DNA from: an uncultured Lentisphaera sp.
Lineage (GTDB): Bacteria > Verrucomicrobiota > Lentisphaeria > Victivallales > GWF2-50-93
DNA: 34,021 nucleotides
Reading direction: 5' to 3'
Assembly (NCBI GenBank): GCA_964638335.1
Contig: CAZXAC010000001.1
Location: 1-34,021, forward strand
This document shows positions 5,224-29,326 of this stretch, piece by piece. The notes below the pieces were generated by a model. It had not been told where the DNA came from. It worked only from the letters and a program-made list of their open reading frames with translations, and made no database searches. A program made the position numbers and the translations under genes. The number at the start of each line of letters is the position of its first letter. Position 1 is the first letter of the stretch.

Positions 5224-6834
5224 TTAATCGCCCTTCACCTTTGGAGCGTAATAGTACATTGGAGGAGTGGGTGGATTCTGCGCGGCGTATGGTGGATCCT
5301 CAATGCATAATTGCCTGCTCATATTGAACATTTCGTCCTCCGTCCTTTTTCTATTGATCGGGTCATAAGCGGGGACATAGTTTTCTAAGATCCAAATGAT
5401 GAGAGGGTGATTTTGGGAATACTTCCTTGGAAGTACTATCAGAGCAGGCGGCGAGGCTTTAAATTCTTTGATTGTTTTCTCGGTCAATTCATCTTTTTTT
5501 TCTCCGAACAGAAAAGGAGCGTTGAAGAATCTTCCGGATCCGGGGCGTCTTTGGGCGTAGAAGTAGAGACTGGCCTCATAGCCCCATTGGAAGAAAGTTT
5601 CGTCCTCTTTCAATTTTTCCCCGATCTCAAGTCCGATTTGGCGGCAGTATATGAATATGGGACCATATTTTTTGTGCGACCACCAATCAGGAGGCATGGA
5701 ATATTTGGGGATTTGAATGATTGCGATGGAGCTAAAGATAAGCACTGCGAAGATCAATGTTATTTTTCCTGTCTCCCGCATCTTATCTTTCGCATTTGAA
5801 GATTCTAATATTCTCATTTCCGAAATCGCCCAGCCAGCTCCGATGCATATTGAAGGAATTAGGAGCTGGTAGTAGTGAGGATAGAATTTCCATGGCAAGA
5901 TTATCATAAGTGGAGCGGACAAGAAAAAGGCCAGCCATTCGAGCCAAGTTTTCCTATCCGAACGCATTCCAATGATAAAACCTGCGAAACTCGCAAGAAT
6001 AAGAGGCAAAATTGTCCAGGCGCTTTTGATAAAAAGTACATGGAAATTTTTGTACACGAATATAATTTTTCTCGCTGTAGAAATTTGTTCCGAGTCGACT
6101 CCAATGTAATAGAAAGGGTATTTGAAATTCATGTATGCGAAATCATTGAGGCCGCCGACGTAGAAAAAGTATATGAAAAGCGGCAACCAGCAGCAGAGGA
6201 CTCCGGCAAGGGATATGAACAGTCCAGTAAGAGTTCTCGCACGTGGCTTTTCCCCCGAAACGAGACCCGGAATGAACATCATCAGGAGTGGAACTATGGC
6301 AAATTGCTTATATATGCTGGCGATGCCGTAGGAAATACCCGCAAGTAAAAAGAAACGTATCCGCAAGTATCGCAAGGAAAGTATCGTAAAGTAAAATCCC
6401 CAGGACAGGGCGGCGTTTATGAAAAGTTCTGAATTTGGCTGATTTGCTTGCGTAAGTATGTCTCCGGATACAAGCACCCATAGAGTCGCCGAAAGAAGTC
6501 CGACTCGTGTTGACCCGGAGCAGGCTTTTGCGGAAAAAAATATTCCAAACATAACGAAAGAGGCTCCTGCCACGTTCAGAAAGTATATTTGAAATTCCCC
6601 GAATCCGGCGATGAGTTGACCCAAAACGTAGGTCAGGAATATTCCGGGTGGTTTGGTGTCCCATACATCCTTATATAGGATTTTGCCATGAATGATTTCA
6701 TTGGCTGCGACTGCGTATATCCCGATGTCCCTGTCTATAGGTTCGTGATAAGTTCGCAGACGCATGAGGGCAATAAGGGATAGCAGTCCCAGTAGCGTAG
6801 CGATTGCGTATAGATTTTTATTCTTTTTGAACAT
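5224..6834 (-). CDS. polytopic membrane glycosyltransferase, GT39/GT83 (ArnT/PMT)-like
   Basis: 536 aa with many predicted TM helices. First-loop motif EPIDRDIGIYAVAANEIIHGKILYKDVWDTKPPGIFL resembles the acidic loop plus KPP motif of ArnT/PMT-type GT-C enzymes. The C-terminal ~130 aa are soluble. Confidence 0.6.
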   Translation of the reverse strand: MFKKNKNLYAIATLLGLLSLIALMRLRTYHEPIDRDIGIYAVAANEIIHGKILYKDVWDTKPPGIFLTYVLGQLIAGFGEFQIYFLNVAGASFVMFGIFFSAKACSGSTRVGLLSATLWVLVSGDILTQANQPNSELFINAALSWGFYFTILSLRYLRIRFFLLAGISYGIASIYKQFAIVPLLMMFIPGLVSGEKPRARTLTGLFISLAGVLCCWLPLFIYFFYVGGLNDFAYMNFKYPFYYIGVDSEQISTARKIIFVYKNFHVLFIKSAWTILPLILASFAGFIIGMRSDRKTWLEWLAFFLSAPLMIILPWKFYPHYYQLLIPSICIGAGWAISEMRILESSNAKDKMRETGKITLIFAVLIFSSIAIIQIPKYSMPPDWWSHKKYGPIFIYCRQIGLEIGEKLKEDETFFQWGYEASLYFYAQRRPGSGRFFNAPFLFGEKKDELTEKTIKEFKASPPALIVLPRKYSQNHPLIIWILENYVPAYDPINRKRTEDEMFNMSRQLCIEDPPYAAQNPPTPPMYYYAPKVKGD

Positions 6835-8526: not shown

Positions 8527-9140
8527 CCGGCATAAAGTTTTTCTCACTGTCTGCAGATTCCACGCAGGTTTCAAACATTGCTGGGGAATGCGCTGCGTTG
8601 CTCAAAATAGATTCATGCGTAGGATTGATTCCAACTGAGACAGTGTATGGTCTTGTGTGTCGCTGGAACGATCAGAATGCTTACGAAAAAATATGGAAAA
8701 TCAAGAAAAGACCGAAAGATAAGAAGTTTCAGATGCTTGCCCTTTCTGTCGCTGATGCGGAAAAATTTGGTTTTGTTCCGGACGTTAGGGCGAGAAATCT
8801 TCTTGACAGTTTCTCTCCCGGTCCTCTGACTGTAATATCGCGTTCTTCTTTTGGTGGTAGCATAGGTCTTCGTATTCCATCAAACGCCTTTTCCAGAGCT
8901 GTCCTGTCGGGAATCCGATGTCCACTTGCGGCGACGAGCGCAAATATTTCAGGAGCTAAAGATTTTTCTGGGTTTGGCCCCATATTAAGTTCTCTTGCTG
9001 GGACTCCTGATTTCGCCGTCGACGCCGGGCTTGTTGATGGATGCCCTTCAACGGTAGTTGATTTGAGCGGCAGTGAAATAAGAATACTTAGGCATGGCAA
9101 GATAAGCGAGAAAATGATACTAGAGGCTATTTCAAAATGA
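8523..9140 (+). CDS. tsaC: L-threonylcarbamoyladenylate synthase (YrdC/Sua5 family, short form)
   Basis: GLIPTETVYGLVC ... IWKIKKRPKDKKFQMLA ... PGPLTVI ... GLRIPSN ... PLAATSANISG are canonical YrdC-domain motifs. ATGA overlaps at both ends. Confidence 0.85.
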   Translation: MTGIKFFSLSADSTQVSNIAGECAALLKIDSCVGLIPTETVYGLVCRWNDQNAYEKIWKIKKRPKDKKFQMLALSVADAEKFGFVPDVRARNLLDSFSPGPLTVISRSSFGGSIGLRIPSNAFSRAVLSGIRCPLAATSANISGAKDFSGFGPILSSLAGTPDFAVDAGLVDGCPSTVVDLSGSEIRILRHGKISEKMILEAISK

Positions 9141-10930
9141 ATTTTTCTTGTTCTGGAAACAGGAATAAGTTGGAAGAAGCTATAAGTAGGTCGGGCAGTT
9201 CTCTGCTGCGTTTGTCCGGAAGTGAAAGGTGGGCTCTGTTTCAGGATCCAGTTGAGATAATGAGGACTGAGAGCTTGGATGAAGTTGAATACGTGATTGA
9301 TGCGGCTGAGAAAAAGACCAAGGAAGGATTGCATTGTTGTCTCATGGTTCCCTACGATTCTGCTCCGGCTTTTGATTCCGCTCTTAGGTCGTCGAGATCA
9401 TATGAGATTCCGGCTGCATGGGCGGCATTATATAAAAAACCGGAACGATTAATTTCTTTTGACGATTTTCCGGATAGTGAAGATGTTGAGATCCGTGCTA
9501 AAAACGAGATAGCCAAAAGGGAATACTTTGATAGCATATCACGAATCAAATCTTTGATCAGGGATGGAGAGACGTATCAGGTCAACTTTACTTTCAGAAT
9601 CAACGCGGCAGCTCCAAGAGCGGCGGAGAATTGTTTTTTGAACCTTTTTAAGTTTCATAGGCCAATATATGGGGCATTCGTAAATACCGGAGATTTGAAA
9701 ATAATGTCTTTTTCTCCGGAGCTTTTCCTTATGAAAAAATCCAATATTCTCACTTCTTTCCCGATGAAGGGAACCGCCGCGAGAATGCCAGTATACGAGG
9801 AAGACCTGCGTGCGGCGCAAAAGTTATCCGCAGATTCCAAGAACAGGGCGGAAAATCTCATGATAACCGACATGGTGCGAAACGATCTTGGAAGAATTTC
9901 CCGCAATGGAACAGTGAAGACGGAGGCGCTTTTCAAGACGGTGACAACTCCGTCGGTACATCAGATGATAAGCATTGTGAATGGTACAATCAAAGGGAAC
10001 ACAGGGCTGATGGATATTTTTCGGGCGATGTTTCCTCCTGCTTCCATAACGGGAGCTCCAAAAGTCAGGACAATGAGCATAATAAAAGAAATTGAGAAAA
10101 GCCCAAGAGGGATTTATACTGGAACGATAGGACATATTTCTCCGAAGGGAGACTTTATTTTTAATGTGGCAATAAGGACCGCAGTAGTATCTGGAAAGAA
10201 TCTAGTGGCCGGAATCGGAGGAGGAATTGTCGCTGACTCCATGCCGAAATCGGAATGGGATGAGGCCTTGTTGAAATCTTCTTTTTTGAAATGTGGTGGC
10301 AGTGGATTCCGCGTGTTCGAGACAATTCTCTTCAGGAGAAATGAAGGCTGGCTATGGCTGGAGGAACATCTTGACAGGCTGGAGAAGTCTCAAAAATATT
10401 TTCTGCGTCGTTTCGACAGAAAAAAAATAAATTCGACATTGTTGAAAGTTTCTCCTAAGTTTCCTTCTGTTGCCAGAGTGAAAATATCTCTTTCAAGCGA
10501 TGGGACTCCGGACGTAGAGTTCAGGGAAATTGTAAAAAATGGATGGAGAGCAAAAAAAATAAATGCGCTCTTTTCAAAGATCAGGACTTCATCTAAAAAT
10601 ATTTTTTTATATCACAAGACAAGCGAAAGGAAGCTGTATGATGAAGAATTAAAAAAAGCGCAAACTGTTGGTTATGATGAAGTTATATTTGCCAACGAAA
10701 AGGGGGAAATTACTGAAGGCGCGATAACGAACATATTTGCGAAGATAAATGGCGGATGGATCACTCCACCGGTTGGATGCGGGCTTTTGCCTGGAATCTG
10801 GCGCTCAAAAATGATTGCCAAGCTTTCCGCGAAAGAGCAAGTAATTGGCATTGAAGAGTTTATGTCTTGCGAAAAAATAATGATTGGGAATTCTGTTCGA
10901 GATTTTGTCTTCGCCAAAATTATAAAATAG
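9137..10930 (+). CDS. pabB: bifunctional aminodeoxychorismate synthase component I / aminodeoxychorismate lyase (PabB-PabC fusion)
   Basis: Chorismate-binding motifs: GETYQVNFTFR, SFSPELFL, PMKGTA, ENLMITDMVRNDLGRI, FPPASITGAPKVRTMSIIKEIE, RGIYTGTIG, GGGIVADS. These are followed by a ~210-aa class-IV aminotransferase/ADC-lyase-like tail (FETILF..GWLWLEEHLDRL ... YDEVIFANEKGEITEGAITNIF). Confidence 0.82.
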   Translation: MNFSCSGNRNKLEEAISRSGSSLLRLSGSERWALFQDPVEIMRTESLDEVEYVIDAAEKKTKEGLHCCLMVPYDSAPAFDSALRSSRSYEIPAAWAALYKKPERLISFDDFPDSEDVEIRAKNEIAKREYFDSISRIKSLIRDGETYQVNFTFRINAAAPRAAENCFLNLFKFHRPIYGAFVNTGDLKIMSFSPELFLMKKSNILTSFPMKGTAARMPVYEEDLRAAQKLSADSKNRAENLMITDMVRNDLGRISRNGTVKTEALFKTVTTPSVHQMISIVNGTIKGNTGLMDIFRAMFPPASITGAPKVRTMSIIKEIEKSPRGIYTGTIGHISPKGDFIFNVAIRTAVVSGKNLVAGIGGGIVADSMPKSEWDEALLKSSFLKCGGSGFRVFETILFRRNEGWLWLEEHLDRLEKSQKYFLRRFDRKKINSTLLKVSPKFPSVARVKISLSSDGTPDVEFREIVKNGWRAKKINALFSKIRTSSKNIFLYHKTSERKLYDEELKKAQTVGYDEVIFANEKGEITEGAITNIFAKINGGWITPPVGCGLLPGIWRSKMIAKLSAKEQVIGIEEFMSCEKIMIGNSVRDFVFAKIIK

Positions 10931-17200: not shown

Positions 17201-18337
17201 ATGTGTAGTACGAAATCTTTTGATCTCTGTAGTATTTTTAAAAAAAATACGCTGTTTTCCCCGCTGATATTGATTATCTTGATTTTTACGTCTACAACTG
17301 TTTATGGAGATGGAGACATATCTTCGATAAGCGTCGAGGAATTGAATCTGGAAATAAGCATATTGGGTATATATATGCTTATAGCTTTGGGCTTTTCTTT
17401 CATCTGTTCGATTTCTGAATCGACTCTTTTGTGCATAACTCCGTCGTATGTTGAGGGGCAGAAGATAAAACGCCCCAAATACGCTAGTATGCTGAGGAAA
17501 TTGAGATTTGATGAGGTGGACCGTTCCCTTGCCGCTATATTGACTCTAAATACCATAGCAAATACCATTGGAGCGATAATCGCAGGCAACAAGGCCGCAG
17601 AAGTTTTTGGAAGCGCATGGATTGGAGTATTTTCAGGTATCATGACAATTCTGATACTTTTCTTTTCGGAGATAGCGCCAAAGACCATAGGGGCGATATA
17701 CTGGAAAAAACTGGCTTGGTTTGTGGCTGTATATGTTCGGATACTGATATTTTTGCTTTATCCAGTGGTTTGGATTTCCGAGAAGTTCACAAAATTTATT
17801 TCACAGGGCAAAAAAGCTCACTCATTTAACCGAGATGAAATTGTGGCGATGACGAGAATTGGTAAACAGTCCGGGCACGTAAATGAAATTGAATACACCA
17901 TATTGGGGAATCTTTTTAAGCTAGATCTGATGAGGGCCAGAGATATCATGAAGCATCGTACCGCGGTCTATGCGTTCCCCGAGGACATTACGATAGCGGA
18001 AGCCGCGGAGAAAGTGGACGAGAAGTCTTTTTCCAGGATTCCTATATACAGCGGTGGCATAGATCAGATAACGGGCTTTGTTCTAAAAACTGAAGTATTG
18101 TTAAAGAACATAAACCAAAAAGGCTCTGAAAAATTATCATCAATAAAGAGAGAAATATTGATGGTGCCGGATACGATTTCCTTAATCGACATTATGAAAG
18201 AATTGCTCGACGAGGGGCAACATATATTCGTTGCTCTTGATGAACACGGCGGGACAAGCGGTATTGTGACGATGGAGGACATTCTTGAAGTTTTGGCCGA
18301 CATGGATATTCTTGACGAGAAGGACAGCGTGAAATAG
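17201..18337 (+). CDS. CNNM/DUF21 transmembrane domain plus CBS-pair protein (HlyC/CorC-family transporter, lacking the CorC_HlyC C-terminal domain)
   Basis: DUF21-like TM region (FICSISESTLLCITPSY ... LAAILTLNTIANTIGAIIAG ... FFSEIAPKTIG) followed by a CBS pair (ARDIMKHRTAVYAFPED ... FSRIPIYSGGIDQITGFV ... HIFVALDEHGGTSGIVTMEDILE). The protein ends right after the CBS pair. The start could be downstream of 17201. Confidence 0.78.
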   Translation: MCSTKSFDLCSIFKKNTLFSPLILIILIFTSTTVYGDGDISSISVEELNLEISILGIYMLIALGFSFICSISESTLLCITPSYVEGQKIKRPKYASMLRKLRFDEVDRSLAAILTLNTIANTIGAIIAGNKAAEVFGSAWIGVFSGIMTILILFFSEIAPKTIGAIYWKKLAWFVAVYVRILIFLLYPVVWISEKFTKFISQGKKAHSFNRDEIVAMTRIGKQSGHVNEIEYTILGNLFKLDLMRARDIMKHRTAVYAFPEDITIAEAAEKVDEKSFSRIPIYSGGIDQITGFVLKTEVLLKNINQKGSEKLSSIKREILMVPDTISLIDIMKELLDEGQHIFVALDEHGGTSGIVTMEDILEVLADMDILDEKDSVK

Positions 18338-18390: not shown

Positions 18391-19434
18391 TCATTCCAAT
18401 GTCTTGAAGAATTTCTCGAGAGGGTAAACTTCTTTTATTGCGTCCACATTGCATCCGCTCATATATAATCCGTTTTCAGTATCTCCGCGCCAAGTTGCGA
18501 GCAGGGCTTTGGCTATGCAAAAAGGGACCTTGCCTGGATTGCATGTCCTAAGACACCGGTACGGGCAAGTAAATTTTTCGCGGTTCCCGGATATAACTCT
18601 TTCAACTAAGGGGGTCTTCAAGACTCTCACTGGGAGCCCAACCGGACTTTTAATAACCGTTACGTCTTTGGATGAAGCCTTTACGTAGACTTCCTTGGAT
18701 TTTCGGTCTATACCAGCCTCTTCTGATGCTATGAAATGCGTTCCTACCTGGACTCCATCATATCCGATTGATATCATCCTTTCTATGTCAGCTCTTGAGG
18801 CTACCATTTCCGCGGCTATCACTGGTTTATCCGCGCAATCCATATCTTTTAGCACCTGTTTTACTTCATGGAGGAGCTTATCTATAGAACATGATTGAGG
18901 GTCACTTATTTGTTCCATACTGAAACCGAGATGTCCGCCATTCATAGGACCTTCCACTATTACAGCGTCAGGCTTTCTGGCATATCTTCTTGCCCATGCC
19001 GATAGAAGGACTTGGAGAGCTCTGCCTCCCGATACTACAGGGATTATGGCTACATTTGAAGTTCCGACATACTCTGGCAGGGGAATCGGGAGACCGGCTC
19101 CCGAAATTATAAAATCTGCTCCGCTTCTTACACTTTCTTCAACGAGTTCGCGGTAATTGGAAAGGGCAACCATTATGTTTACGCCGATAGGACCTTTTAC
19201 GCAGAGTTGCCTGGCCTTTGCAATTTCTTCTCTAAGTACGCGATTGGATTCGTTTATAAAGTCTGTTTTTGATTTTTCGATGTCGCCGAGGCCTACGCTT
19301 GCGATGGTGCCATATCCTCCAAGCTTGGCTGTTGTGGCGGCGAGGAGGGCTCCTCCAACTCTTACCCCCATGCCGGCCTGGATCACAGGGAAACGGCTCT
19401 CAAGGTCTCTTATTTTCAAACTTGGCAACTTCAA
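18391..19434 (-). CDS. NAD(P)H-dependent flavin oxidoreductase, nitronate monooxygenase / FabK-like family
   Basis: FPVIQAGMGVRVGGALLAATTAKLGGYGTIA, ISGAGLP, IVEGPMNGGHLG and YDGVQVGTHFIASEE are NMO/FabK TIM-barrel motifs. The ORF-track start is a TTG with a weak SD, so the start is uncertain by a few codons. Confidence 0.75.
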   Translation of the reverse strand: MKLPSLKIRDLESRFPVIQAGMGVRVGGALLAATTAKLGGYGTIASVGLGDIEKSKTDFINESNRVLREEIAKARQLCVKGPIGVNIMVALSNYRELVEESVRSGADFIISGAGLPIPLPEYVGTSNVAIIPVVSGGRALQVLLSAWARRYARKPDAVIVEGPMNGGHLGFSMEQISDPQSCSIDKLLHEVKQVLKDMDCADKPVIAAEMVASRADIERMISIGYDGVQVGTHFIASEEAGIDRKSKEVYVKASSKDVTVIKSPVGLPVRVLKTPLVERVISGNREKFTCPYRCLRTCNPGKVPFCIAKALLATWRGDTENGLYMSGCNVDAIKEVYPLEKFFKTLE

Positions 19435-19555: not shown

Positions 19556-20362
19556 TCATTCGAGACTGATTTTCTCAAATGATTCCAAATCTCCTCCCAA
19601 AAATCTTCTCGCTTGGGCGTAAAAATTCCCGGGCATATCTGTGACGAAGAATCTTTCGGAACCTTTCTGTCCTGAGCCGGCTTCAATTCCGAGTTCTGAT
19701 ATTTTTGAAGTTGCGAATTTCGCGCATGACTCCGCGCTATCTATTATGGACACACTTTGAGGCAGCTGTTTTTTCAGAGTCTTTTTTATTAGAGGATAGT
19801 GGGTGCAGGCAAGAAGAAGAATATCCGGGGGATTTTTACTTATTCCACCCAGGTAAAGCTGGACAGCGGCTTCGGCAATCGGCTCATCCTGAAGTCCCTC
19901 TTCGACTATTGGAACTAGCAGTGGAGCTGCCACGCTTTTCACTATTATTGCAGGATTTAGTGAATGCATGCCTCGCCTGTAGGCATCGCTTGATATTGTG
20001 GCGCGTGTGCCTATAATCATTACCAAATTCGGTTTTCGTTCAACGCAAGAATTAATCCCAGCCTCCAAAACCCCGATTAGTGGGATGTTTGGAAATCTGT
20101 CTTTAAGCGCCTGCATCGCCACGGCGGACACGGTATTACAAGCCGCAATTATGGCTTTTACTCCTCTTTCTATCAGAAATTCCGCGTCCTGAATTGCGAA
20201 TTTCGCGATGTTTTCAGGTGATTTGTCTCCGTAGGGGACTCTTGCGGTATCCCCGAGGTATATTATGTTTTCGTTGGGCAATGATTTCCTAAGAGAGGCT
20301 ACTACGGTCAATCCTCCGAGTCCTGAATCAAATATCCCGATTGGTCTGTTGTCTTTTTTCAT
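19556..20362 (-). CDS. murI: glutamate racemase
   Basis: IGIFDSGLGGLTVVASL ... IIYLGDTARVPYGDKS ... IIAACNTVSA ... LLLACTHYPL are canonical MurI motifs with both catalytic Cys contexts. The start overlaps the upstream gene by 35 nt. Confidence 0.9.
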   Translation of the reverse strand: MKKDNRPIGIFDSGLGGLTVVASLRKSLPNENIIYLGDTARVPYGDKSPENIAKFAIQDAEFLIERGVKAIIAACNTVSAVAMQALKDRFPNIPLIGVLEAGINSCVERKPNLVMIIGTRATISSDAYRRGMHSLNPAIIVKSVAAPLLVPIVEEGLQDEPIAEAAVQLYLGGISKNPPDILLLACTHYPLIKKTLKKQLPQSVSIIDSAESCAKFATSKISELGIEAGSGQKGSERFFVTDMPGNFYAQARRFLGGDLESFEKISLE

Positions 20363-22286
20363 AGTCTTTTATTCTCCGGTTTGTTTCTTCTATTTGTTCT
20401 TTTATGCTTTCCAATATTCCCACTCTTCTTGGATCTAACTTCCTTACGGAATGTTCTTCGTGAAGGCCTTTTTCGACTTTAGCCACGAAACTTTCTATCG
20501 CCTTATCGCTCAAATGTTCAGGTTTCTCCGACCATTTTTTTAAGAATTCTTGTTCTGGGGAATTCTTTCTGTCGATAGTGCTGCGAATAGGTTTTCCGTG
20601 CGTATAGAACTGGTATCCTTTTAATGCGAGAATAATATTTTCGTAATCAAAATCAGCATTGCTTGGCTTTCTAAGTCTTATGAATTTGAATTCCATAACT
20701 TCCGAAGCTTCGCTTTCGTTCTCATCTATTTTCCGAAAATGGTGCTTTCTGTCTGAAAAATTGAGGCTCTGTCTGCCGTTAGTATCCAATTCGTTGTTGA
20801 AAATTCTTTTTTCACGAAGGATTCCGTTCTTGTCCTCCGAAATGTCTCCGCCCAACATGAGAAGGCATGCTAGATCTTCAGGCTGGTGGTTTTTATCGGT
20901 TATGTTGCTATGGTTTTCGCTTCTAAGTTCCATTGATATGTGCAGGCTGTGAGGAGGGATTTCATTTAAGAATTTTACCGCCTCATTTATCAATCTTGAA
21001 AGTGCCCATGGACAGTCAAATATAGGTCTGGAAAGGTCTCCGACGATTTGGTAGCGTCCAAAGGCATATTCGAAAAAACCTCTCTGTCGTTCCTGTCCTG
21101 GAAGTATTTGATGGTGAGAATCCACGTGGGCGCCATACCTCCAAGTCCGTCTATACAGATCGAAGTCCTTAAACCAGAAAAATCCATCGAAGAAAGGATC
21201 TTTTCCCGGAGATGAGTTTACTGCGTCGACGCCGAGATGGCTGAATTCAAGTTCTGCCCCGAGCGGAGTAGGAGTGGAGAACCACATCTCATCCGTTTCA
21301 GCTATGATTTTTGACATGTTTTCCTGGAAATATATTCGGTCGGAAACTTTTATTGAGGCTCCGATATAGTCCAAGTAAGATCTGGAAGGATCAAATTTGT
21401 CAAGATTATCCCTGACAATCATGCTTTCCACATTTTTTGAATGTCGGTTGTAATATATGAAAGCCATGAGAACGGCGAGGCCGTGCCTGAAATAATGTTC
21501 TGATAGTCTGACATCGTCTGGGAAATCGGATCTTACATGATCAACGAGCTGATTCATTATCACATGCTTGCATAAGAGCCTGATATAGTTGTCCGCGTAG
21601 GGAAGTATGTTTTTGTCGTCGGCTATTTTGGAAAGATCCGGGGGGACGATTTCCTTAAGCGCCTGCGCCGCTATGTAATTGCATATGTAGTTTCCTTCAA
21701 ATTGGGAGCGTATTATTTCGTCGGCGGCGGATCCTGCAAGTTCGTGGCATATTCGCCTGTCGGAACAGTTTCCGTCCTTGTGCATCTGCAGGAAAAGTTC
21801 GTCTATTTTTTTTTCTAGGAAGAAGCCGTATCTGTCTTCAAATTGGGTGTGTTTCCCGAAGGACTTTTCGAGCATATTTATGTTTCCGACGTATGCCATG
21901 CACCTTTGGCGTGCGTTGGCTGTCCTTGCTACGACGGTCTGTCTTTTGTAGAGTCTGCCTTCGTCCTCAAATTCGTCAAGAGTCTTTATTTCGTCTTTTG
22001 TAATCCCTTTAAGGATTTTTCCATGAGTGACGGCTCCGTGATATTTTACTATGAAGGGGAAGCTCCATTTGGGTTCTAGTCGCATGAAATTGTGCAGTTC
22101 AGCTTGCGTTGATTTTGGAATTCTTTTCAACAACATCTGTAGATTGCTGTCGACCATCAGAATTCCGTACACGAAAAGATCTATCTTTTCGCCTTTTGTA
22201 GCCTTGAAGGCTTGGGATATTATTTCCCTTGGCCGGTTTTGCCGGCTGGCGTTATCGCGCGGCGCTTTTGTTTTTGTAAGAGGCAT
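20328..22286 (-). CDS. 652-aa uncharacterised multidomain protein: N-terminal gamma-glutamylcyclotransferase (AIG2/GGACT)-fold domain plus a ~500-aa region of unknown family
   Basis: Residues ~35-135 (nt 21882-22184) show the AIG2/GGCT pattern: IDLFVYGILM ... HNFMRL ... PFIV ... THGKILKGITKDEIKTLDEFEDEGRLYKRQTVVART..RCMAYVG. I recognise no family for the rest. It is a long uninterrupted ORF with an ATG start, 7 nt after the GNAT stop. Confidence 0.7.
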   Translation of the reverse strand: MPLTKTKAPRDNASRQNRPREIISQAFKATKGEKIDLFVYGILMVDSNLQMLLKRIPKSTQAELHNFMRLEPKWSFPFIVKYHGAVTHGKILKGITKDEIKTLDEFEDEGRLYKRQTVVARTANARQRCMAYVGNINMLEKSFGKHTQFEDRYGFFLEKKIDELFLQMHKDGNCSDRRICHELAGSAADEIIRSQFEGNYICNYIAAQALKEIVPPDLSKIADDKNILPYADNYIRLLCKHVIMNQLVDHVRSDFPDDVRLSEHYFRHGLAVLMAFIYYNRHSKNVESMIVRDNLDKFDPSRSYLDYIGASIKVSDRIYFQENMSKIIAETDEMWFSTPTPLGAELEFSHLGVDAVNSSPGKDPFFDGFFWFKDFDLYRRTWRYGAHVDSHHQILPGQERQRGFFEYAFGRYQIVGDLSRPIFDCPWALSRLINEAVKFLNEIPPHSLHISMELRSENHSNITDKNHQPEDLACLLMLGGDISEDKNGILREKRIFNNELDTNGRQSLNFSDRKHHFRKIDENESEASEVMEFKFIRLRKPSNADFDYENIILALKGYQFYTHGKPIRSTIDRKNSPEQEFLKKWSEKPEHLSDKAIESFVAKVEKGLHEEHSVRKLDPRRVGILESIKEQIEETNRRIKDYEKRQQTNRDI

Positions 22287-22293
22287 GTCACGA

Positions 22294-22782
22294 TCAGAGT
22301 TCGATTAACACCGCAATTTCATCGCAATTATTTTTTTTTCTGCATTTTGCGCAGTCGGACCATATTTTTTCTGGGAACATATCTTTGGAAACAACTCTAA
22401 AACCGAGTCTTTCAAAAAGTTTTGGTCTGTATGTTAGGGCGAAAATTCTTTTGGCCGCATTTTTTTTCAGTGTTCTGAAACAGGCTTTTACCAATTTGCT
22501 TCCAAGACCCTTTCCGTTATGTTCCTGGAGTACCGCGAGAGATCTTATTTCAAAAAGTCCCTTTCCGAAGTCTCTCGATGCGCAGCATCCCAATAGCTTT
22601 CCGGCCAATTCCGCGACTTTGAAAGATGCTATATGTTTTTCTATTTCCTCTCCGCTCCTCGGGAGCAGGAGATTTTTTTTAGCATAATTAAGTAATATTT
22701 TCTCTATTTCTGCAACGTCTTTTTTTTTGGCGGCGCGGATGCTATAGGAGTACTTTATCTTTCCCTTTTTTTTTGGGGTCAT
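22294..22782 (-). CDS. GNAT-family N-acetyltransferase, short ArgA-like (COG1246-type amino-acid N-acetyltransferase)
   Basis: IRAAKKKDVAEIEKIL ... LLPRSGEEIEKHIASFKVAE..GKLLGCCA ... EIRSLAVLQEHNGKGLGSKLV (acetyl-CoA Q/RxxGxG motif) ... FALTYRPKLFERLGF ... C-terminal Cys pattern WSDCAKCRKKNNCDEIA. ATGA overlap with the accA stop. Confidence 0.7.
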   Translation of the reverse strand: MTPKKKGKIKYSYSIRAAKKKDVAEIEKILLNYAKKNLLLPRSGEEIEKHIASFKVAELAGKLLGCCASRDFGKGLFEIRSLAVLQEHNGKGLGSKLVKACFRTLKKNAAKRIFALTYRPKLFERLGFRVVSKDMFPEKIWSDCAKCRKKNNCDEIAVLIEL

Positions 22783-23732
22783 TCGCTGAAGAAACCTATT
22801 TTACGATACTTGGCGTATCTTTTTTCTATGAGCTTGTCTACGGGCATTGATGATAATTCCTTGAGGTTCTTTTTTATGTATTCCTTCAGCAATGCGGCGG
22901 TTGCATCCCAATCACGATGAGCTCCTCCGAGAGGCTCAGGTATGATTTCATCTATGATTCCCAGTTCGGATAAATCTTTCCCAGTAAGCTTTAGAGCTTC
23001 TGCCGCTCTTGCCGAATATGAGCGGTCTTTCCAGAGAATTGCCGCGCAACCCTCAGGGGTTATAACGGAATAATACGAGTTCTCAAAGAGGGCTACCTTG
23101 TCTCCGATTCCTATTCCGAGGGCTCCTCCGCTGCCTCCTTCTCCTATGACCACGACAACAATGGGGACGCTAAGTCCGAACATCTCCCTGAGATTTACCG
23201 CTATGGCTTCTCCGATGTGTCTTTCCTCAGATGCTATTCCGGGGAAAGCCCCTGGAGTATCTATTATGGATATTATAGGTTTCCCGGCTTTTTCTGCCAA
23301 CTTCATTATTCTCAATGCTTTTCTATATCCTTCCGGATGCGGGCATCCGAAATTTCTATGTACATTTTCCTTTATATTTCTTCCTTTTTGAGTTCCGATG
23401 ACGACCACTGGCTCCCCATCTAATTTCGCGAAGCCTCCCACAATTGCGGGATCCTCGGCGTAGCGTCTGTCTCCGTGAAGTTCTATAAAATCAGTGAATA
23501 CTCTCGAGATATAGTCGAGCGTATACGGTCTTTCCGGATGTCTGGCGAGTTGAACTTTCTGCCAAGGGGAAAGAGATTGATATATGGTCTTCTTGGTTTC
23601 GTTCGCTTTTTGCCTGAGTTTTTCCAACTCCTTATCGACATCGAGATTGCTATTTTCTCCCAGCTTCTGTAATTCCTCTAATTTTGCTTCGAGTTCGTAG
23701 ATGGGCTTTTCGAATTCAAGAATTGCAGGCAT
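22779..23732 (-). CDS. accA: acetyl-CoA carboxylase carboxyltransferase subunit alpha
   Basis: LEFEKPIYELEAKLEEL, LSPWQKVQLARHPERPYTLDY, FIELHGDR, GGFAKLDGEPVVVIG, PHPEGYRKALRIMKLAEKAGKPIISIIDTPGAFPG, VVVIGEGGSGGALGIG and SVITPEGCAAILWKD are canonical AccA motifs. Confidence 0.92.
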   Translation of the reverse strand: MPAILEFEKPIYELEAKLEELQKLGENSNLDVDKELEKLRQKANETKKTIYQSLSPWQKVQLARHPERPYTLDYISRVFTDFIELHGDRRYAEDPAIVGGFAKLDGEPVVVIGTQKGRNIKENVHRNFGCPHPEGYRKALRIMKLAEKAGKPIISIIDTPGAFPGIASEERHIGEAIAVNLREMFGLSVPIVVVVIGEGGSGGALGIGIGDKVALFENSYYSVITPEGCAAILWKDRSYSARAAEALKLTGKDLSELGIIDEIIPEPLGGAHRDWDATAALLKEYIKKNLKELSSMPVDKLIEKRYAKYRKIGFFSE

Positions 23733-23733
23733 T

Positions 23734-24783
23734 TTAGTCCTCTATTATTACTTTTGTTCCTTGTGGCACTATTGCAAAAAGTTCATCAATGTCTTCATTT
23801 TTCATTCTTACGCATCCGTTGCTGGTAGCTTGTCCAACGGAATCAGGCTCCCATGTCCCGTGAATTCCGTAGCCTTTCAGATTCTTGCCGGCTGAGCCTA
23901 CTGGTGTGAGAGCCATCCAGCGTGTTCCGAGTATATTGTCTGGGTTGCCGTAGGGGATTGATTTTCCGTCAGCGTACCATACGGGATCTTTTTGTTTCAG
24001 TGTTATTTCAAACTCTCCATCTGGAGTTCTATCCTGTTTGCCTATTCCCACGACATAAGACTTGAACAATCTGTCTCCATCCATCAGGCGGAGTGTCTTT
24101 CTTGTTTTTGAGACCATTATCTTCCAATCACCCTGGTAAATGCAAAGAGTTTTTCCCGGAAATATGGTGTGTTTGCCTGGATCTATTCTGTTTGATGTCT
24201 GTATTGCTTCTACTGTGGTGTTGAATTTGTTGGCTATTTTTATGAGAGAATCTCCCTTGTCTATGGTATAGAGTTTCTTTTCTTCGGAAGGGATGTCGCT
24301 TTTGAAGATTTCGATATTTATCTTGCCGATAATTTCCTCTATCTTCTCTTTGGCGGCGGAATCCTGCTTCTCGGCAGTATATAACTCGTATAGTACTTTT
24401 CTTGCTTCCATGAGATTTCCAGAAGAGATAAGGCTTTCTGCTGCTTGTATGCGAGCTCCCAGATCTCCGGGAATCTTTATGTCTGTTTTTTTTGGGACAT
24501 CAAGTTTTGGAGAATCATCCACTTTCTTCTTTGGTTCTTCTTTTATAGGCTTCTTTGGGGTTTCCTCTATTTCCTTTTCAATTTTCTTTGGGACATTTTC
24601 TTTCTCCTCCTCGATTGAAGAAGAGTCCTTTCCTAGCTGGACAATGAAGTAGATTATGCCGACGGTTGTGGCTCCTACAACTAGTAGTATTATCCAGAAA
24701 AATGGTGTTTTCTTTTCCGCCTTGTATCCAGAGAACGGGGGCGTTTTTTGCCCAGTATATATCATATCATCCTTTTTAGGCAT
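23734..24783 (-). CDS. membrane-anchored LysM plus YkuD-domain L,D-transpeptidase
   Basis: N-terminal TM helix FFWIILLVVGATTVGIIYFIV, then a Lys/Glu/Pro-rich linker. LysM domain: YTIDKGDSLIKIANKFNTTVEAIQTSNRI. YkuD catalytic region: YGIHGTWEPDSVGQATSNGCVRMKNEDIDELF (His ... Cys). Confidence 0.85.
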   Translation of the reverse strand: MPKKDDMIYTGQKTPPFSGYKAEKKTPFFWIILLVVGATTVGIIYFIVQLGKDSSSIEEEKENVPKKIEKEIEETPKKPIKEEPKKKVDDSPKLDVPKKTDIKIPGDLGARIQAAESLISSGNLMEARKVLYELYTAEKQDSAAKEKIEEIIGKINIEIFKSDIPSEEKKLYTIDKGDSLIKIANKFNTTVEAIQTSNRIDPGKHTIFPGKTLCIYQGDWKIMVSKTRKTLRLMDGDRLFKSYVVGIGKQDRTPDGEFEITLKQKDPVWYADGKSIPYGNPDNILGTRWMALTPVGSAGKNLKGYGIHGTWEPDSVGQATSNGCVRMKNEDIDELFAIVPQGTKVIIED

Positions 24784-27265: not shown

Positions 27266-28225
27266 ATGAGAGTCGCTATGTTTTCTTTTGTGGCAAAGGG
27301 AGTCAAAGGGAGTTTTTTTATTCTTGTGAGTTTATTGTTGGTGTTGAATCTTTTCGCGGCGGCAAAAAAAGAAAAGCAAGGAGAAAAGGCAAAGGGTAAA
27401 AAAAATGAAAAAGCTGTAGTTGTTCCTGATGGCGGTGAGATAGTTTTTCCAAGAGAAGGTTCGATAGATTACAATGAAGGAACCTTTGAAATCTGGTTCA
27501 AGCTCGCCTATAACATAGAAGATCCTATGGTTGAGGATAAAAGTTTTCGCGTTCCAGTCAAATTCCTTTCCTTTCACAGAAAAAATGACGATAAGTATAG
27601 CAAGGAGAAAGATAAAAAAGGCCCACCATACAAATTGATTAACCATGTAGATAACGAAGAAGCTCCGACAATCACCATATACATTGAGCACAGGGAGGCT
27701 GGAGGAGGAGTTATTGTTTGCGCATCAAATCTAATTGACAGGAAGATTCTTGACAGGAAGGTTCCTCAGATTTATGCTGTGAAAGGGCTGACATTTAAAG
27801 CCGACGAATGGCACTTTATAGCATTGTCATGGAAGAAAGTTGGTGAACAGTATGAGTGCAATATGAGAATTGATGGAGAATCCTTGCCGACTATTACGGC
27901 GTCAGCATGCAATATATCCGATATGAGTCCGGAAGGTGCGATAATCAAGATCGGGTCAACTGAAGACTCTCTTTTCGCAGTGAACAGCTTCAGAATTTCC
28001 AAAACAGCAAGAACCGAAGAACAATTAAAGAACAGTTTTGAAAAAGGCCTCTCGGCAGACTCAGACACCTTGTTATTTCAAAACGGAGAGAGCTTGGCAA
28101 AACTTAAAAAAAGCGAAAAACTTACGGCGGATGTAGACAAAAAGGGGCAAATTTTCGGAGCCAACAAATTCATAGACGGCAAATTTGGTAAAGCTCTTCT
28201 TCTTCACGTGCCAGGCAAGAAATGA
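27266..28225 (+). CDS. secreted LamG/concanavalin-A-like lectin-fold protein, tandem paralog 1
   Basis: Signal peptide FFILVSLLLVLNLFAAA, then a Lys-rich linker. LamG-like hallmarks: GTFEIWFKL ... ADEWHFIALSWKK ... GSTEDSLFAVNSFRISKTARTEEQL. AGGAGG lies 6 nt before the ATG. About two-thirds amino-acid identity to the next ORF by eye. Confidence 0.6.
   Translation: MRVAMFSFVAKGVKGSFFILVSLLLVLNLFAAAKKEKQGEKAKGKKNEKAVVVPDGGEIVFPREGSIDYNEGTFEIWFKLAYNIEDPMVEDKSFRVPVKFLSFHRKNDDKYSKEKDKKGPPYKLINHVDNEEAPTITIYIEHREAGGGVIVCASNLIDRKILDRKVPQIYAVKGLTFKADEWHFIALSWKKVGEQYECNMRIDGESLPTITASACNISDMSPEGAIIKIGSTEDSLFAVNSFRISKTARTEEQLKNSFEKGLSADSDTLLFQNGESLAKLKKSEKLTADVDKKGQIFGANKFIDGKFGKALLLHVPGKK
28149..28225 (+). 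repeat. 77-nt near-identical segment (copy 1) shared by the 3' ends of the two LamG-like paralogs
   Basis: 28149-28225 versus 29250-29326 is 76/77 identical. The only difference is 28204 T versus 29305 G, which is synonymous (Leu). The 60 nt immediately upstream differ at many positions. Confidence 0.85.
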
Positions 28226-28360
28226 CAATCTTGCCAGGAGCAGGAGTTTTGCAAAGTGAATTTACTTTCCTCTTAGAGTATTTTGTTGAAAATAAGCTTG
28301 CCATTTGGCTGAGAATGTCGCATATTGACCGTGGGGCAATCTTTTAAAAGGGAGACAAAG

Positions 28361-29326
28361 ATGAAAAGGAATATGTTTTTTCTGATGGGGAAGGTTTTTA
28401 GACAGTGTCTTCTTGTTGTCGTCGGATTGATGTTGATGGTGGAGCTTTCTGCTGCCGCAAAAAAAGAAAACGAAAAGACGAAGACAAAAAAAATTGAAAA
28501 ATCAGCGGTTGTTTCCGAAGACGGCGAGATAGTTTTTCCCGCCAAAGGTCTCATAGATTACAATCAGGGGACTTTTGAAATCTGGTTCAAGCTTACCTAC
28601 AATCTGGAAGACCCTATGACGGAAGAAAAGAGTTTTCGCATAATTCCTATTCTTTCTTTCTATAAGAAGGAGGATGATTCTGTTTATAACAAGGAGAAAA
28701 ACAGGAAGCCTGGACGTTACAATGTGATCAGTTGTTATGCGGACGAGGCAGAGGCTCCGACAATAAATTTGCTTATTGAGCACAGGCAGTCAGAAGGCGG
28801 ATCCATCCTTTATGTATCGAATCTGATAGACAGAAAGACAAAGGGATTGGGCATAAAAGTTCCTAACGCCTATGTAGTGAAAGGACTTACGTTCAAAGCT
28901 GATGAATGGCATTTTATCGCCATATCATGGAAAAAAACAGAAAATGAACAATATGAATGTTCGATGAGCATTGATGGCGAAGCGCATCCGCCGATTACCG
29001 CGTCGGCATGTAAAATAGCTGACATGGATCTGTCTGACGTGTTGATTAGGATTGGTTCAATAGAAGATGCTTTATTCGCGGTAAACAGTTTTAGGATTTC
29101 CAAAATTGTAAGATCTGAAGAGCAGATAAAAAGCAGCTTCGAAAAAGGTCTTTCTGCGGATTCAGATACTTTGTTTTTTCAAAACGGTGAGAGTCTGGCG
29201 AAATTGAAAAAGGGCACTAGACTAGGCACTGAAGTTGACAAGAAGGGTGAAATTTTCGGAGCCAACAAATTCATAGACGGCAAATTTGGTAAAGCTCTTC
29301 TTCTGCACGTGCCAGGCAAGAAATGA
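28361..29326 (+). CDS. secreted LamG/concanavalin-A-like lectin-fold protein, tandem paralog 2
   Basis: MKRNMFFLMGKVFRQCLLVVVGLMLMVELSAAA signal peptide, then GTFEIWFKL ... ADEWHFIAISWKK ... FAVNSFRISKIVRSEEQI. I place the start at ATG 28361 (GGGAGA SD at 28350-28355) rather than the track's 28325. Confidence 0.6.
   Translation: MKRNMFFLMGKVFRQCLLVVVGLMLMVELSAAAKKENEKTKTKKIEKSAVVSEDGEIVFPAKGLIDYNQGTFEIWFKLTYNLEDPMTEEKSFRIIPILSFYKKEDDSVYNKEKNRKPGRYNVISCYADEAEAPTINLLIEHRQSEGGSILYVSNLIDRKTKGLGIKVPNAYVVKGLTFKADEWHFIAISWKKTENEQYECSMSIDGEAHPPITASACKIADMDLSDVLIRIGSIEDALFAVNSFRISKIVRSEEQIKSSFEKGLSADSDTLFFQNGESLAKLKKGTRLGTEVDKKGEIFGANKFIDGKFGKALLLHVPGKK
29250..29326 (+). repeat. 77-nt near-identical segment (copy 2) shared by the 3' ends of the two LamG-like paralogs
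   Basis: See 28149-28225. It encodes the identical C-terminus IFGANKFIDGKFGKALLLHVPGKK* in both genes. Confidence 0.85.

Follow-up and report, generated by a model that had tools for sequence, protein, structure and literature searches.

A conserved 652-residue protein of Lentisphaerota joins a GGACT-type cyclotransferase domain to a probable carboxylate-amine ligase-like module

We analyzed a 34,021-nucleotide (nt) stretch of DNA from an uncultured Lentisphaera sp. (CAZXAC010000001.1, positions 1-34,021; hereafter the window, whose numbering is used for coordinates throughout unless another locus is named). Our subject is a minus-strand open reading frame (ORF) encoding a 652-amino acid (aa) protein that combines an N-terminal GGACT/AIG2-type cyclotransferase domain with a long C-terminal part, referred to below as the module. 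The ORF lies in a run of five genes, given here in gene order:

23734-24783, minus strand: LysM-YkuD gene (YkuD and LysM domains, Pfam)
22779-23732, minus strand: accA (PF03255, E 7e-146), a context gene only
22294-22782, minus strand: small ArgA-like GNAT, 162 aa (NCBIfam PRK07757, 163.9 bits against a cut-off of 154)
20328-22286, minus strand: the 652-aa ORF (GGACT domain, helical region, predicted carboxylate-amine-ligase-like core, C-terminal helical domain)
19556-20362, minus strand: murI, glutamate racemase (Asp_Glu_race; TIGR00067, 207 bits against a cut-off of 146.65)

A 1-nt gap separates the LysM-YkuD gene from accA, accA and the GNAT gene share a 4-nt ATGA overlap, 7 nt (TCGTGAC) lie between the GNAT gene and the 652-aa ORF, and the 3′ end of the latter overlaps murI by 35 nt. 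The accA/GNAT junction ("...GAATGACC...") and the GNAT/652-aa ORF junction ("TGA tcgtgac ATG") were read directly in the sequence. The ORF calls and the direct reading agree with the tight packing of the five minus-strand genes reported in an earlier annotation of this DNA (the original prediction). Matches of the GNAT protein to the ArgA/NAGS-type (N-acetylglutamate synthase) models of NCBIfam were below the cut-offs of those models.

The 652-aa protein is 100% identical to a database protein named “gamma-glutamylcyclotransferase [Victivallales bacterium]” (P0001). A first homolog search returned 166 full-length relatives of ~630-670 aa from metagenome-assembled genomes (MAGs) of Lentisphaerota, Victivallales, and Kiritimatiellota, annotated solely via their GGACT domain. 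In an alignment of 40 homologs (A1), mean column identity is 58% across the whole length, and the unannotated part carries dense invariant motifs of charged and His residues (GAELEFS, HVDSH, RxRGFxEYAxGR, PHSLHISME, LRExR, and EYKFxRL). Three further alignments were used: 44 sequences down to 20% identity (A3), GGACT domains including the partners from split systems described below (A4), and a deep alignment of the core (A5). When 1.84 billion representative proteins were searched exhaustively with a profile, only 121 relatives were obtained, and the family is thus narrow. A scan of species-representative genomes located 67 species-level loci with a 652-aa-type protein, most of them in Victivallales or Lentisphaeria and others in Kiritimatiellota; relatives at 31-36% identity belong to Omnitrophota, Poribacteria, Auribacterota, Chlamydiota, and a “delta proteobacterium” MAG. 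Full-length conservation together with confident structural models rules out a gene-calling artifact, and the 652-aa ORF is a real conserved gene. MAGs labeled Victivallis vadensis are among the family matches (L010 and L023).

Within the N-terminal part of the protein, the following features were located:

21885..22187, minus strand: GGACT/AIG2-like gamma-glutamyl(amine) cyclotransferase domain, aa 34-134 (PF06094, PDB sequence and Foldseek matches)
22158..22169, minus strand: YGIL (aa 40-43), a pocket motif corresponding to YGSL in the GGCT superfamily
21966..21968, minus strand: E107, predicted catalytic Glu (alignment to PDB 1vkb)

PF06094 (GGACT) is the sole Pfam match in the protein (aa 37-134, E 3.2e-13, 50.7 bits against a cut-off of 22.8) and is matched by all 40 aligned homologs. 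Searching PDB sequences with the family profile recovered plant AIG2-like proteins (2g0q and 2jqv) and GGACT (1vkb, 2kl2, and 3jub), while Foldseek with the full model returned GGCT, GGACT, ChaC2, and AIG2 structures (2g0q, 2jqv, 2i5t/3cry, 1vkb, and 3jub/3juc) at prob 1.00. Hallmarks of the GGCT-like superfamily are the YGSL pocket motif and a catalytic Glu, which is Glu82 in human GGACT (bioRxiv 10.1101/2025.01.15.633182). In A4, Y40, G41, and L43 do not vary, and in A1 they hardly do; E107 is invariant in both alignments and aligns to Glu94 of chain 1vkb, that is, to native GGACT Glu82 once the 12-residue tag is subtracted. The motifs quoted in the original prediction lie where it placed them (YGIL at 40-43 and LDEFEDEG at 103-110), and its assignment of the N terminus to the GGCT fold holds, with PF06094 above threshold, structural matches, and both YGIL and E107 present. 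The catalytic Glu and the pocket motif, whose loss it had named as counting against its proposal, are intact. By sequence and predicted structure, aa 34-134 form an intact GGACT/AIG2-type cyclotransferase domain that is predicted to be catalytically competent. In enzymes of this type, the free alpha-amine of the glutamate attacks the gamma-glutamyl amide, yielding 5-oxoproline and a free amine.

The remainder of the protein is divided, in the predicted structure, into three parts:

21285..21881, minus strand: all-helical region, aa 136-334 (secondary structure of the model), which by itself matches nothing in structure or sequence
20592..21284, minus strand: predicted glutamine synthetase (GS)-fold, carboxylate-amine-ligase-like core, aa 335-565 (Foldseek matches to Dop/PafA and GshF; order of strands and helices)
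20334..20558, minus strand: C-terminal helical domain of ~75 aa, aa 577-651 (helices 577-587, 594-612, and 619-651, modeled with high confidence)

As had been proposed, aa 140-652 fall into no recognized family: no match to this region was found in Pfam, NCBIfam, PHROGs, or PADLOC when the protein, its C-terminal part, 40 homologs, and 10 remote homologs were searched, and PDB sequence searches were empty as well. The PHROGs scan returned no amidoligase family. When a core-only profile was used to search a large database for proteins bridging the core to named domains, the best 120 matches were all family members.

The AlphaFold model of the full protein has a mean predicted local distance difference test score (pLDDT) of 81.9 and a predicted template modeling score (pTM) of 0.77; pTM rises to 0.85 for aa 140-652 alone, and the C-terminal helices listed above have pLDDT > 90. 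When the isolated C-terminal model was compared with 350,542 PDB chains using Foldseek, the best five matches were all Dop/PafA chains (9cku_G, a Dop, at the top, followed by 4bjr_A, 7oxy_A, 7oyh_A, and 4bjr_B; prob 0.97-1.00 over 360-385 columns), and the sixth-ranked match had a prob of only 0.14. When the full model was searched, long matches outside the GGACT domain were limited to two: PafA 4bjr_B (prob 0.91 over 382 columns) and, in GshF 3ln7, the part that is a gamma-glutamylcysteine ligase (prob 0.72). Six main strands are predicted (342-348, 387-389, 404-409, 445-454, 511-516, and 528-537), with helices 426-439 and 548-562 coming after the third and the sixth; the model thus has the six-stranded sheet with helices after strands 3 and 6 that is a feature of the superfamily of carboxylate-amine ligases. 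PafA and Dop are described as a six-stranded sheet with helices followed by a C-terminal helical domain of ~70-75 aa (PMC3511204), and the matching layout of the module argues for the GS fold. These results suggest that the C-terminal module probably adopts the carboxylate-amine ligase (GS) fold, an assignment made from fold and motifs, and that it works like, and probably belongs to, the superfamily of carboxylate-amine ligases while falling in none of its named families. The faint impression of a GS-like COOH-NH2 amidoligase recorded in the original prediction is thereby backed by structure prediction.

In the superfamily, strand 1 carries the GhExE motif, strands 2 and 3 carry acidic residues, and strand 4 carries [HQD]x[NH] (PMC2588565); strand 5 and the loop preceding it each have an Arg, and strand 6 has Ex[RK]x2D (or [QH]x4D) (PMC2588565). 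The conserved segments of the module are as follows:

21246..21260, minus strand: G343-A-E345-L-E347, GhExE motif, predicted metal/ATP site (strand 342-348)
21114..21128, minus strand: H-V-D389-S-H391, strand 2, candidate catalytic Asp (strand 387-389)
21066..21080, minus strand: G403-F-F-E406-Y407, acidic residue on predicted strand 3 (strand 404-409, then helix 426-439)
20928..20954, minus strand: P-H446-S-L-H449-I-S451-M-E453, His-bearing predicted strand 4 (strand 445-454)
20802..20819, minus strand: L-R491-E492-K-R494-I, candidate arginine finger (conservation)
20673..20699, minus strand: V-M-E532-F-K534-F-I-R537-L, predicted strand 6 (strand 528-537, then helix 548-562)

Across the 44 sequences of A3, G343, E345, and E347 are invariant, as is G403; D389 is Asp in 43 and H391 is His in 41. 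F404 and E406 are kept in 43 sequences each, and so are H446, S447, and H449. D389 and E406 supply the acidic residues expected on strands 2 and 3. At position 451, Ser is found in 26 sequences, Asn in 13, and Thr in 5; standalone forms of the module read H-[VIF]-N, which fits [HQD]x[NH]. R494, located in segment 490-496 ahead of strand 511-516, is Arg in 44/44 and E492 is Glu in 39/44, both being invariant in A5; R491 and R513 are conserved in the fused clade only. On strand 6, R537 and L538 are invariant (44/44), E532 is Glu in 38 sequences and Gln in 6, and K534 occurs in part of the family only. Residues that are still invariant or nearly so at 20-30% identity (A3 and A5) are G343, E345, E347, D389, E406, H446, H449, E492, R494, E532, and R537. 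In the predicted model, the invariant residues sit on strands in the order of the motifs that define the superfamily. The three segments singled out earlier for their resemblance to amidoligase motifs lie at the positions given then (GAELE 343-347, HVDSH 387-391, and PHSLHISME 445-453; together nt 20928-21260) and coincide with three predicted active-site strands (GhExE, HVD, and H-x-S/N).

In the distant-phylum loci that were checked, the GGACT domain is fused to the module, and the fusion spans at least six phyla (Lentisphaerota, Kiritimatiellota, Omnitrophota, Poribacteria, Auribacterota, and Chlamydiota). A deep search also found standalone module proteins of 420-490 aa, with no Pfam domain, in Desulfuromonadaceae and “Deltaproteobacteria” MAGs. 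These match the family profile from about position 93 and have in common with the fused proteins the C-terminal half of the helical region aa 136-334. In five of five evaluable loci, a separate GGACT gene adjoins the standalone module gene:

L074: convergent pair
L075: pair on the same strand, 8-nt overlap
L076: convergent pair, GGACT partner with an extra N-terminal region
L078 and L079: convergent pairs

The GGACT partners retain the YGxL motif and the catalytic Glu (A4). Since the remaining neighbors in the five split loci are unrelated to each other, the adjacency of the two genes is evidence that the halves are coupled. Such a pattern, with the halves fused in some lineages and encoded side by side in others, is classic evidence for joint action of the two activities. 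The conserved functional unit is the GGACT domain plus the C-terminal module, present as a fusion or as neighboring genes, a point absent from the original prediction. Two details of the split loci were also recorded. The GGACT partner in L076 (1711-2898, minus strand) is 395 aa long, and its ~200 extra N-terminal residues give a weak methyltransferase-like Pfam match. In L075, a Peptidase_M23 gene of the peptidoglycan endopeptidase type (5285-5959, plus strand) lies immediately upstream of the pair of standalone module and GGACT genes; it is the sole cell-wall-related neighbor observed outside the Victivallales block.

Conservation of the neighboring genes was assessed by tblastn of the window’s neighbor proteins against all loci, close relatives being defined by >40% identity:

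GNAT directly upstream: 50/61 of all evaluable loci, 50/55 close relatives, 0/6 in distant phyla
murI directly downstream: 31/57 of all evaluable loci, 31/51 close relatives, 0/6 in distant phyla
GNAT and murI both present: 28/52 evaluable loci

As can be seen, the idea of a three-gene GNAT/fusion/murI glutamate module stands in part. The GNAT half is supported by the upstream position in close relatives and, in one lineage, by an in-frame GNAT-GGACT-module fusion (P0053, 794 aa, 42 member sequences), at whose junction an Asn lies between the normal GNAT C terminus “...LLEL” and the Met with which the next protein starts. The murI half is supported weakly, and the expectation that the synteny would be conserved wherever the gene occurs fails: both neighbors occur together in little more than half of the evaluable loci and neither is found in the distant ones. 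Contexts with neither gene include those of P0115, P0109, P0099, and P0054, and GNAT is also missing in several Victivallales and Kiritimatiellota loci. Upstream of GNAT, accA is found in nearly all GNAT-bearing loci and is as conserved in the block as GNAT itself. Since accA is functionally unrelated, the order of the block may be inherited synteny, and the GNAT/murI/accA arrangement may largely reflect inherited gene order within one bacterial order. A lineage-specific link between GNAT and the fusion protein is plausible; the link of murI to the fusion gene is weak.

Among loci lacking both GNAT and murI, a search for shared neighbors turned up nothing except a malic-enzyme gene, which lies directly upstream of the fusion gene and divergent to it in three distant loci related to one another (L066 3367-4671, L072 3311-4666, and L073 3518-4822, all on the minus strand), which are from Auribacterota, an unclassified bacterium, and Chlamydiota; this adjacency is probably local synteny. 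On one Lentisphaerota-type contig (L005, 8112-12930), the position directly downstream of the homolog P0099 is occupied not by murI but by a type II CRISPR-Cas system (Cas9, Cas1, and Cas2). A search of the other genes in the window found none tied to glutamate, 5-oxoproline, arginine, or polyamine metabolism.

A model to which we give an even chance holds that the 652-aa ORF is a fusion of two enzymes, in which the ligase-like module makes and the GGACT domain breaks gamma-glutamyl amides. In this model, E345/E347, D389, E406, H449, and E532 would hold Mg/Mn-ATP on the concave face of the six-stranded sheet. With the two Arg residues named below, this conserved set comprises four Glu, one Asp, one His, and two Arg; six ligands is the ligand count of the two-metal site in glutamine-synthetase-type enzymes. 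The group phosphorylated would be a carboxylate, most likely that at the gamma position of a glutamate; R494 and R537 would stabilize the acyl-phosphate, and an amine would attack it to give a gamma-glutamyl amide. The GGACT domain would later take off the gamma-glutamyl group as 5-oxoproline, freeing the amine. The overall result would be a put-on/take-off gamma-glutamyl cycle on an amine, analogous to protection and deprotection in butirosin biosynthesis, and in Lentisphaerota the upstream ArgA-like GNAT would probably act on the same substrate or on the glutamate. Beyond the observed domain identities, conservation, predicted fold, and fusion/adjacency pattern, we infer that the reaction depends on ATP and runs in the ligase direction, that glutamate donates the acyl group, and that the steps occur in this order. 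Three known cases count as precedents for a ligase paired with a cyclotransferase. BtrG, an enzyme of the GGCT fold, takes off the protective gamma-glutamyl group in butirosin biosynthesis (bioRxiv 10.1101/2025.01.15.633182); an uncharacterized carboxylate-amine ligase family neighbors Aig2 cyclotransferases in Firmicutes (PMC2588565); and in LUZ24-like phages, one cluster holds Amidoligase_2 and COOH-NH2_lig together with an ATP-grasp enzyme and AIG2 (PMC3890496).

A number of observations weigh against this two-enzyme model. Foldseek E-values for the Dop/PafA matches are modest (8e-3 to 2.7e-2), and the matches have low TM-scores of 0.26-0.40 at a root-mean-square deviation (rmsd) of 8-10 Å. 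Searching Pfam with hmmscan, in a set that includes the Pup_ligase, GCS2, Amidoligase_2, COOH-NH2_lig, and Gln-synt models, gave nothing for the module at E <= 10 for 40 members and at E <= 1 for 10 remote members, and phmmer together with the family-profile hmmsearch of PDB sequences recovered AIG2/GGACT chains only. Comparison of three family profiles of rising diversity with PafA/Dop and YbdK using hhalign gave prob <= 0.4 (P = 0.14-0.66), the template profiles, built on sequences from the PDB search, being thin (Neff, the effective number of sequences, ~1-2). Counting for the model, a relaxed hhalign comparison with PafA, although not significant (P = 0.14), pairs, in co-linear order and in a chemically reasonable way, GAELE with GIETE, D389 with D57, and E406-Y407 with E63-Y64, as well as R537-L538 with the RL of YRRLHVIVGD, and the equally nonsignificant comparison with YbdK pairs GAELE with GIELE; the residue equivalences between module and PafA are thus alignment-based rather than drawn from a coordinate superposition. 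D57 of PafA (Asn in chain 4bjr and Asp in 4b0t) would be the conserved Asp proposed as catalytic base in PafA/Dop (PMC3511204). Two of the motifs depart from the superfamily consensus: strand 4 of the 652-aa protein reads H-x-S and not H-x-[NH], and strand 6 reads E-x-K-x2-R against E-x-[RK]-x2-D, the final Asp being replaced by an invariant Arg. The neighbors of the gene, apart from GNAT, are variable. In addition, if one bond were the target of both the ligase and the cyclotransferase, the result would be a futile cycle turning Glu and ATP into 5-oxoproline, and an intervening step is therefore expected, e.g., acetylation by the GNAT or a reaction elsewhere on the substrate. Finally, Dop is a hydrolase of the same fold, so that the fold is not tied to ligation (PMC3511204).

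The low structural scores and the lack of any significant sequence or profile link could mean that the resemblance to PafA/Dop is coincidental. In that case, aa 140-652 would represent a new fold or family whose chemistry is unrelated, or else a domain that regulates the cyclotransferase or recruits its substrates. A search of the viral structure library BFVD agrees with this, giving weak matches only (“Amidoligase enzyme”, prob 0.35), as do the ~190 helical residues that precede the GhExE strand, which in PafA and GCS2 is N-terminal. We nonetheless consider coincidence unlikely, because the top five of all PDB chains come from one small family and are followed by a steep fall in probability, the full model independently matched another superfamily member, GshF, and the invariant acidic, His, and Arg residues are co-linear, on predicted strands, with the published motif list; a purely regulatory domain would not be expected to retain at least nine invariant charged residues across phyla. 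Granting the ligase fold, the module could still act as a Dop-like nucleotide-assisted amidase or deamidase, or as another phosphotransferase, in which case the protein would combine two degradative activities on gamma-glutamyl or glutaminyl amides. Such a catabolic pairing escapes the futile-cycle problem, the best structural match is a Dop (9cku_G) and Dop entries make up three of the top five, Dop and PafA catalyze opposite reactions with the same fold and active site (PMC3511204), and the deviations on strands 4 and 6 are departures from the ligase consensus. Foldseek, however, does not separate Dop from PafA (E 8e-3 versus 1.1e-2), the residues expected to bind metal and nucleotide and to stabilize an acyl-phosphate are all invariant, and the majority of characterized superfamily members are ligases (PMC2588565). 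We regard the degradative alternative as unlikely.

The original proposal, a dedicated system in which GNAT and MurI act with the fusion protein on the gamma-D-glutamyl linkages of peptidoglycan stems or on D-Glu-containing metabolites, with MurI supplying or consuming D-Glu, draws on the packing and overlap of five genes of which the first encodes a LysM-YkuD L,D-transpeptidase, on the frequencies of GNAT and murI in close relatives, on the recurrence of the murI overlap (e.g., in L012, L023, and L026), on the Peptidase_M23 gene adjoining the split system in L075, and on the plausibility of glutamate binding for all three products. It is improbable in our estimate: the murI linkage is gone in ~40% of close relatives and in six of six evaluable distant-phylum loci, where the GGACT-module pair persists without GNAT, and the equal conservation of the unrelated accA allows that the gene order is inherited within Victivallales. 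Moreover, murI is a housekeeping gene, and the GGACT/GGCT enzymes characterized so far use L-gamma-glutamyl compounds (bioRxiv 10.1101/2025.01.15.633182). A more far-reaching version of the ligase-plus-cyclotransferase model, which we consider a long shot, is that the module is a PafA-like ligase attaching free glutamate to amino groups as a one-residue tag and that the fused GGACT domain is the eraser, releasing 5-oxoproline. Candidate targets, on this far-fetched version, would be polyamines or, in proteins or cell-wall peptides, the side chains of lysine or diaminopimelate, and the ArgA-like GNAT might conceivably be a competing or cooperating modifier of the amine. The textbook substrate of GGACT is epsilon-(gamma-glutamyl)-lysine, the type of bond that PafA makes.

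Returning to the two-enzyme model, the module can be compared with known systems. PafA and Dop of Actinobacteria (4b0t, 4bjr, 7oxy, and 9cku), its best structural matches, share with it a curved sheet and a helix cluster followed by a helical C-terminal domain. In the nonsignificant alignment described above, the GhExE first strand, the Asp on the next strand, the E-Y strand, and the R-L strand of PafA come in the same order, and PafA/Dop chemistry concerns gamma-glutamyl-amine (isopeptide) bonds, the bond type that GGACT enzymes cleave. In contrast to PafA/Dop, the module has no detectable sequence homology to them and no Pup_ligase match in Pfam, its GhExE strand lies ~200 residues into the module rather than at the N terminus, strand 4 reads H-x-S/N where PafA has H-E-N, it is fused to a cyclotransferase, and its hosts are bacteria of the PVC (Planctomycetes-Verrucomicrobia-Chlamydiae) group and related phyla and Desulfuromonadales, not Actinobacteria. 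The GCS2/YbdK ligases, GshF, and glutamine synthetase belong to the same predicted superfamily. The motifs of GCS2/YbdK and the module resemble each other, with LG-IELE-M against LG-AELE-F, H-V-H against H-I-S/N, and E-V-R-V-M-D against E-F-K-F-I-R, the last pair differing in the strand-6 Asp that is an invariant Arg in the module; here too, the hhalign comparison is not significant (P = 0.53) and no Pfam match was found.

Amidoligase_2 (PF12224), the “new CAL” (carboxylate-amine ligase) family of Iyer et al., is likewise a GS-fold ligase genomically coupled to an enzyme of the AIG2/GGCT fold (PMC2588565, PMC3890496). Such coupling is also seen here, as a fusion in 67 loci and as adjacency in the five split loci. 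Unlike those systems, the module matches neither PF12224 nor PF14395 at the thresholds given above for hmmscan, most lineages have the two parts in a single polypeptide, and the gene lies amid chromosomal housekeeping genes and not in a phage or mobile element. The N-terminal domain is of the same superfamily as GGACT (human A2LD1), plant AIG2-like proteins, and BtrG, as judged by PF06094, YGxL, the catalytic Glu, and the fold. BtrG shows that there is precedent for taking off a gamma-glutamyl group put on beforehand by a ligase; its partner ligase, BtrJ, is an ATP-grasp enzyme and not one of the GS fold. Known GGACT/AIG2 members have a single domain, or two in YkqA, whereas the 652-aa protein adds a ligase-like module of ~500 aa, and to our knowledge no member of the GGACT superfamily has been described as fused to such a module. 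A literature search found no description of this GGACT-module family. Two other assignments were considered and rejected: no Pup-like or proteasome gene of a pupylation system is present in the window or in 12 inspected contexts, and a phage or defense element is not indicated, with no PADLOC or PHROG matches and a housekeeping context.

The name “gamma-glutamylcyclotransferase”, carried by hundreds of database entries, covers the GGACT fifth of the protein and leaves four fifths without annotation. If the module is indeed ligase-like, it is a new, deeply divergent family in the superfamily of glutamine synthetase, glutamate-cysteine ligases, and the Pup ligase. The pairing of a ligase with AIG2, known from Firmicutes and phages, would then gain a chromosomal and often fused counterpart in six phyla and a split form in Desulfuromonadales-type MAGs. 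The theme itself has been noted before; what appears to be new here is the divergent ligase-like family, as predicted from the model, and the fused architecture. An opaque ORF is thus turned into a testable hypothesis, in which ATP-dependent gamma-glutamylation of an amine would be followed by removal by the cyclotransferase. Were the substrate a protein or cell-wall amine, this would be a new kind of reversible modification; were glutamate used as a tag, as outlined above, PVC-group bacteria would have a reversible, ATP-driven system of gamma-glutamyl marking.

Several further observations concern the window. A promoter and terminator scan gave results at chance level and is uninformative on co-transcription, and an Rfam scan found no RNA families. 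An NMO/FabK-like gene of the enoyl-ACP-reductase type (18391-19434, minus strand) follows murI on the same strand at a distance of 121 nt; since accA belongs to this run too, housekeeping genes for fatty acids and for the cell wall are mixed in the cluster. Both the window (17201-18337, plus strand) and three unrelated loci (L003 8034-9296, L072, and L073) have a gene for a CNNM/CBS (CorC-type) transporter no more than a few kilobases from the fusion gene, a proximity that may be due to chance. Two neighboring ORFs of 319 and 333 aa (27266-28225 and 28325-29326, both on the plus strand), which have no Pfam match at E <= 1e-4, sit between a DUF4838 protein gene and two sulfatase genes. Finally, a 597-aa ORF at 9137-10930 (plus strand) contains a chorismate-binding (PabB-like) and a class IV aminotransferase (PabC-like) domain and has the appearance of a PabB-PabC fusion.

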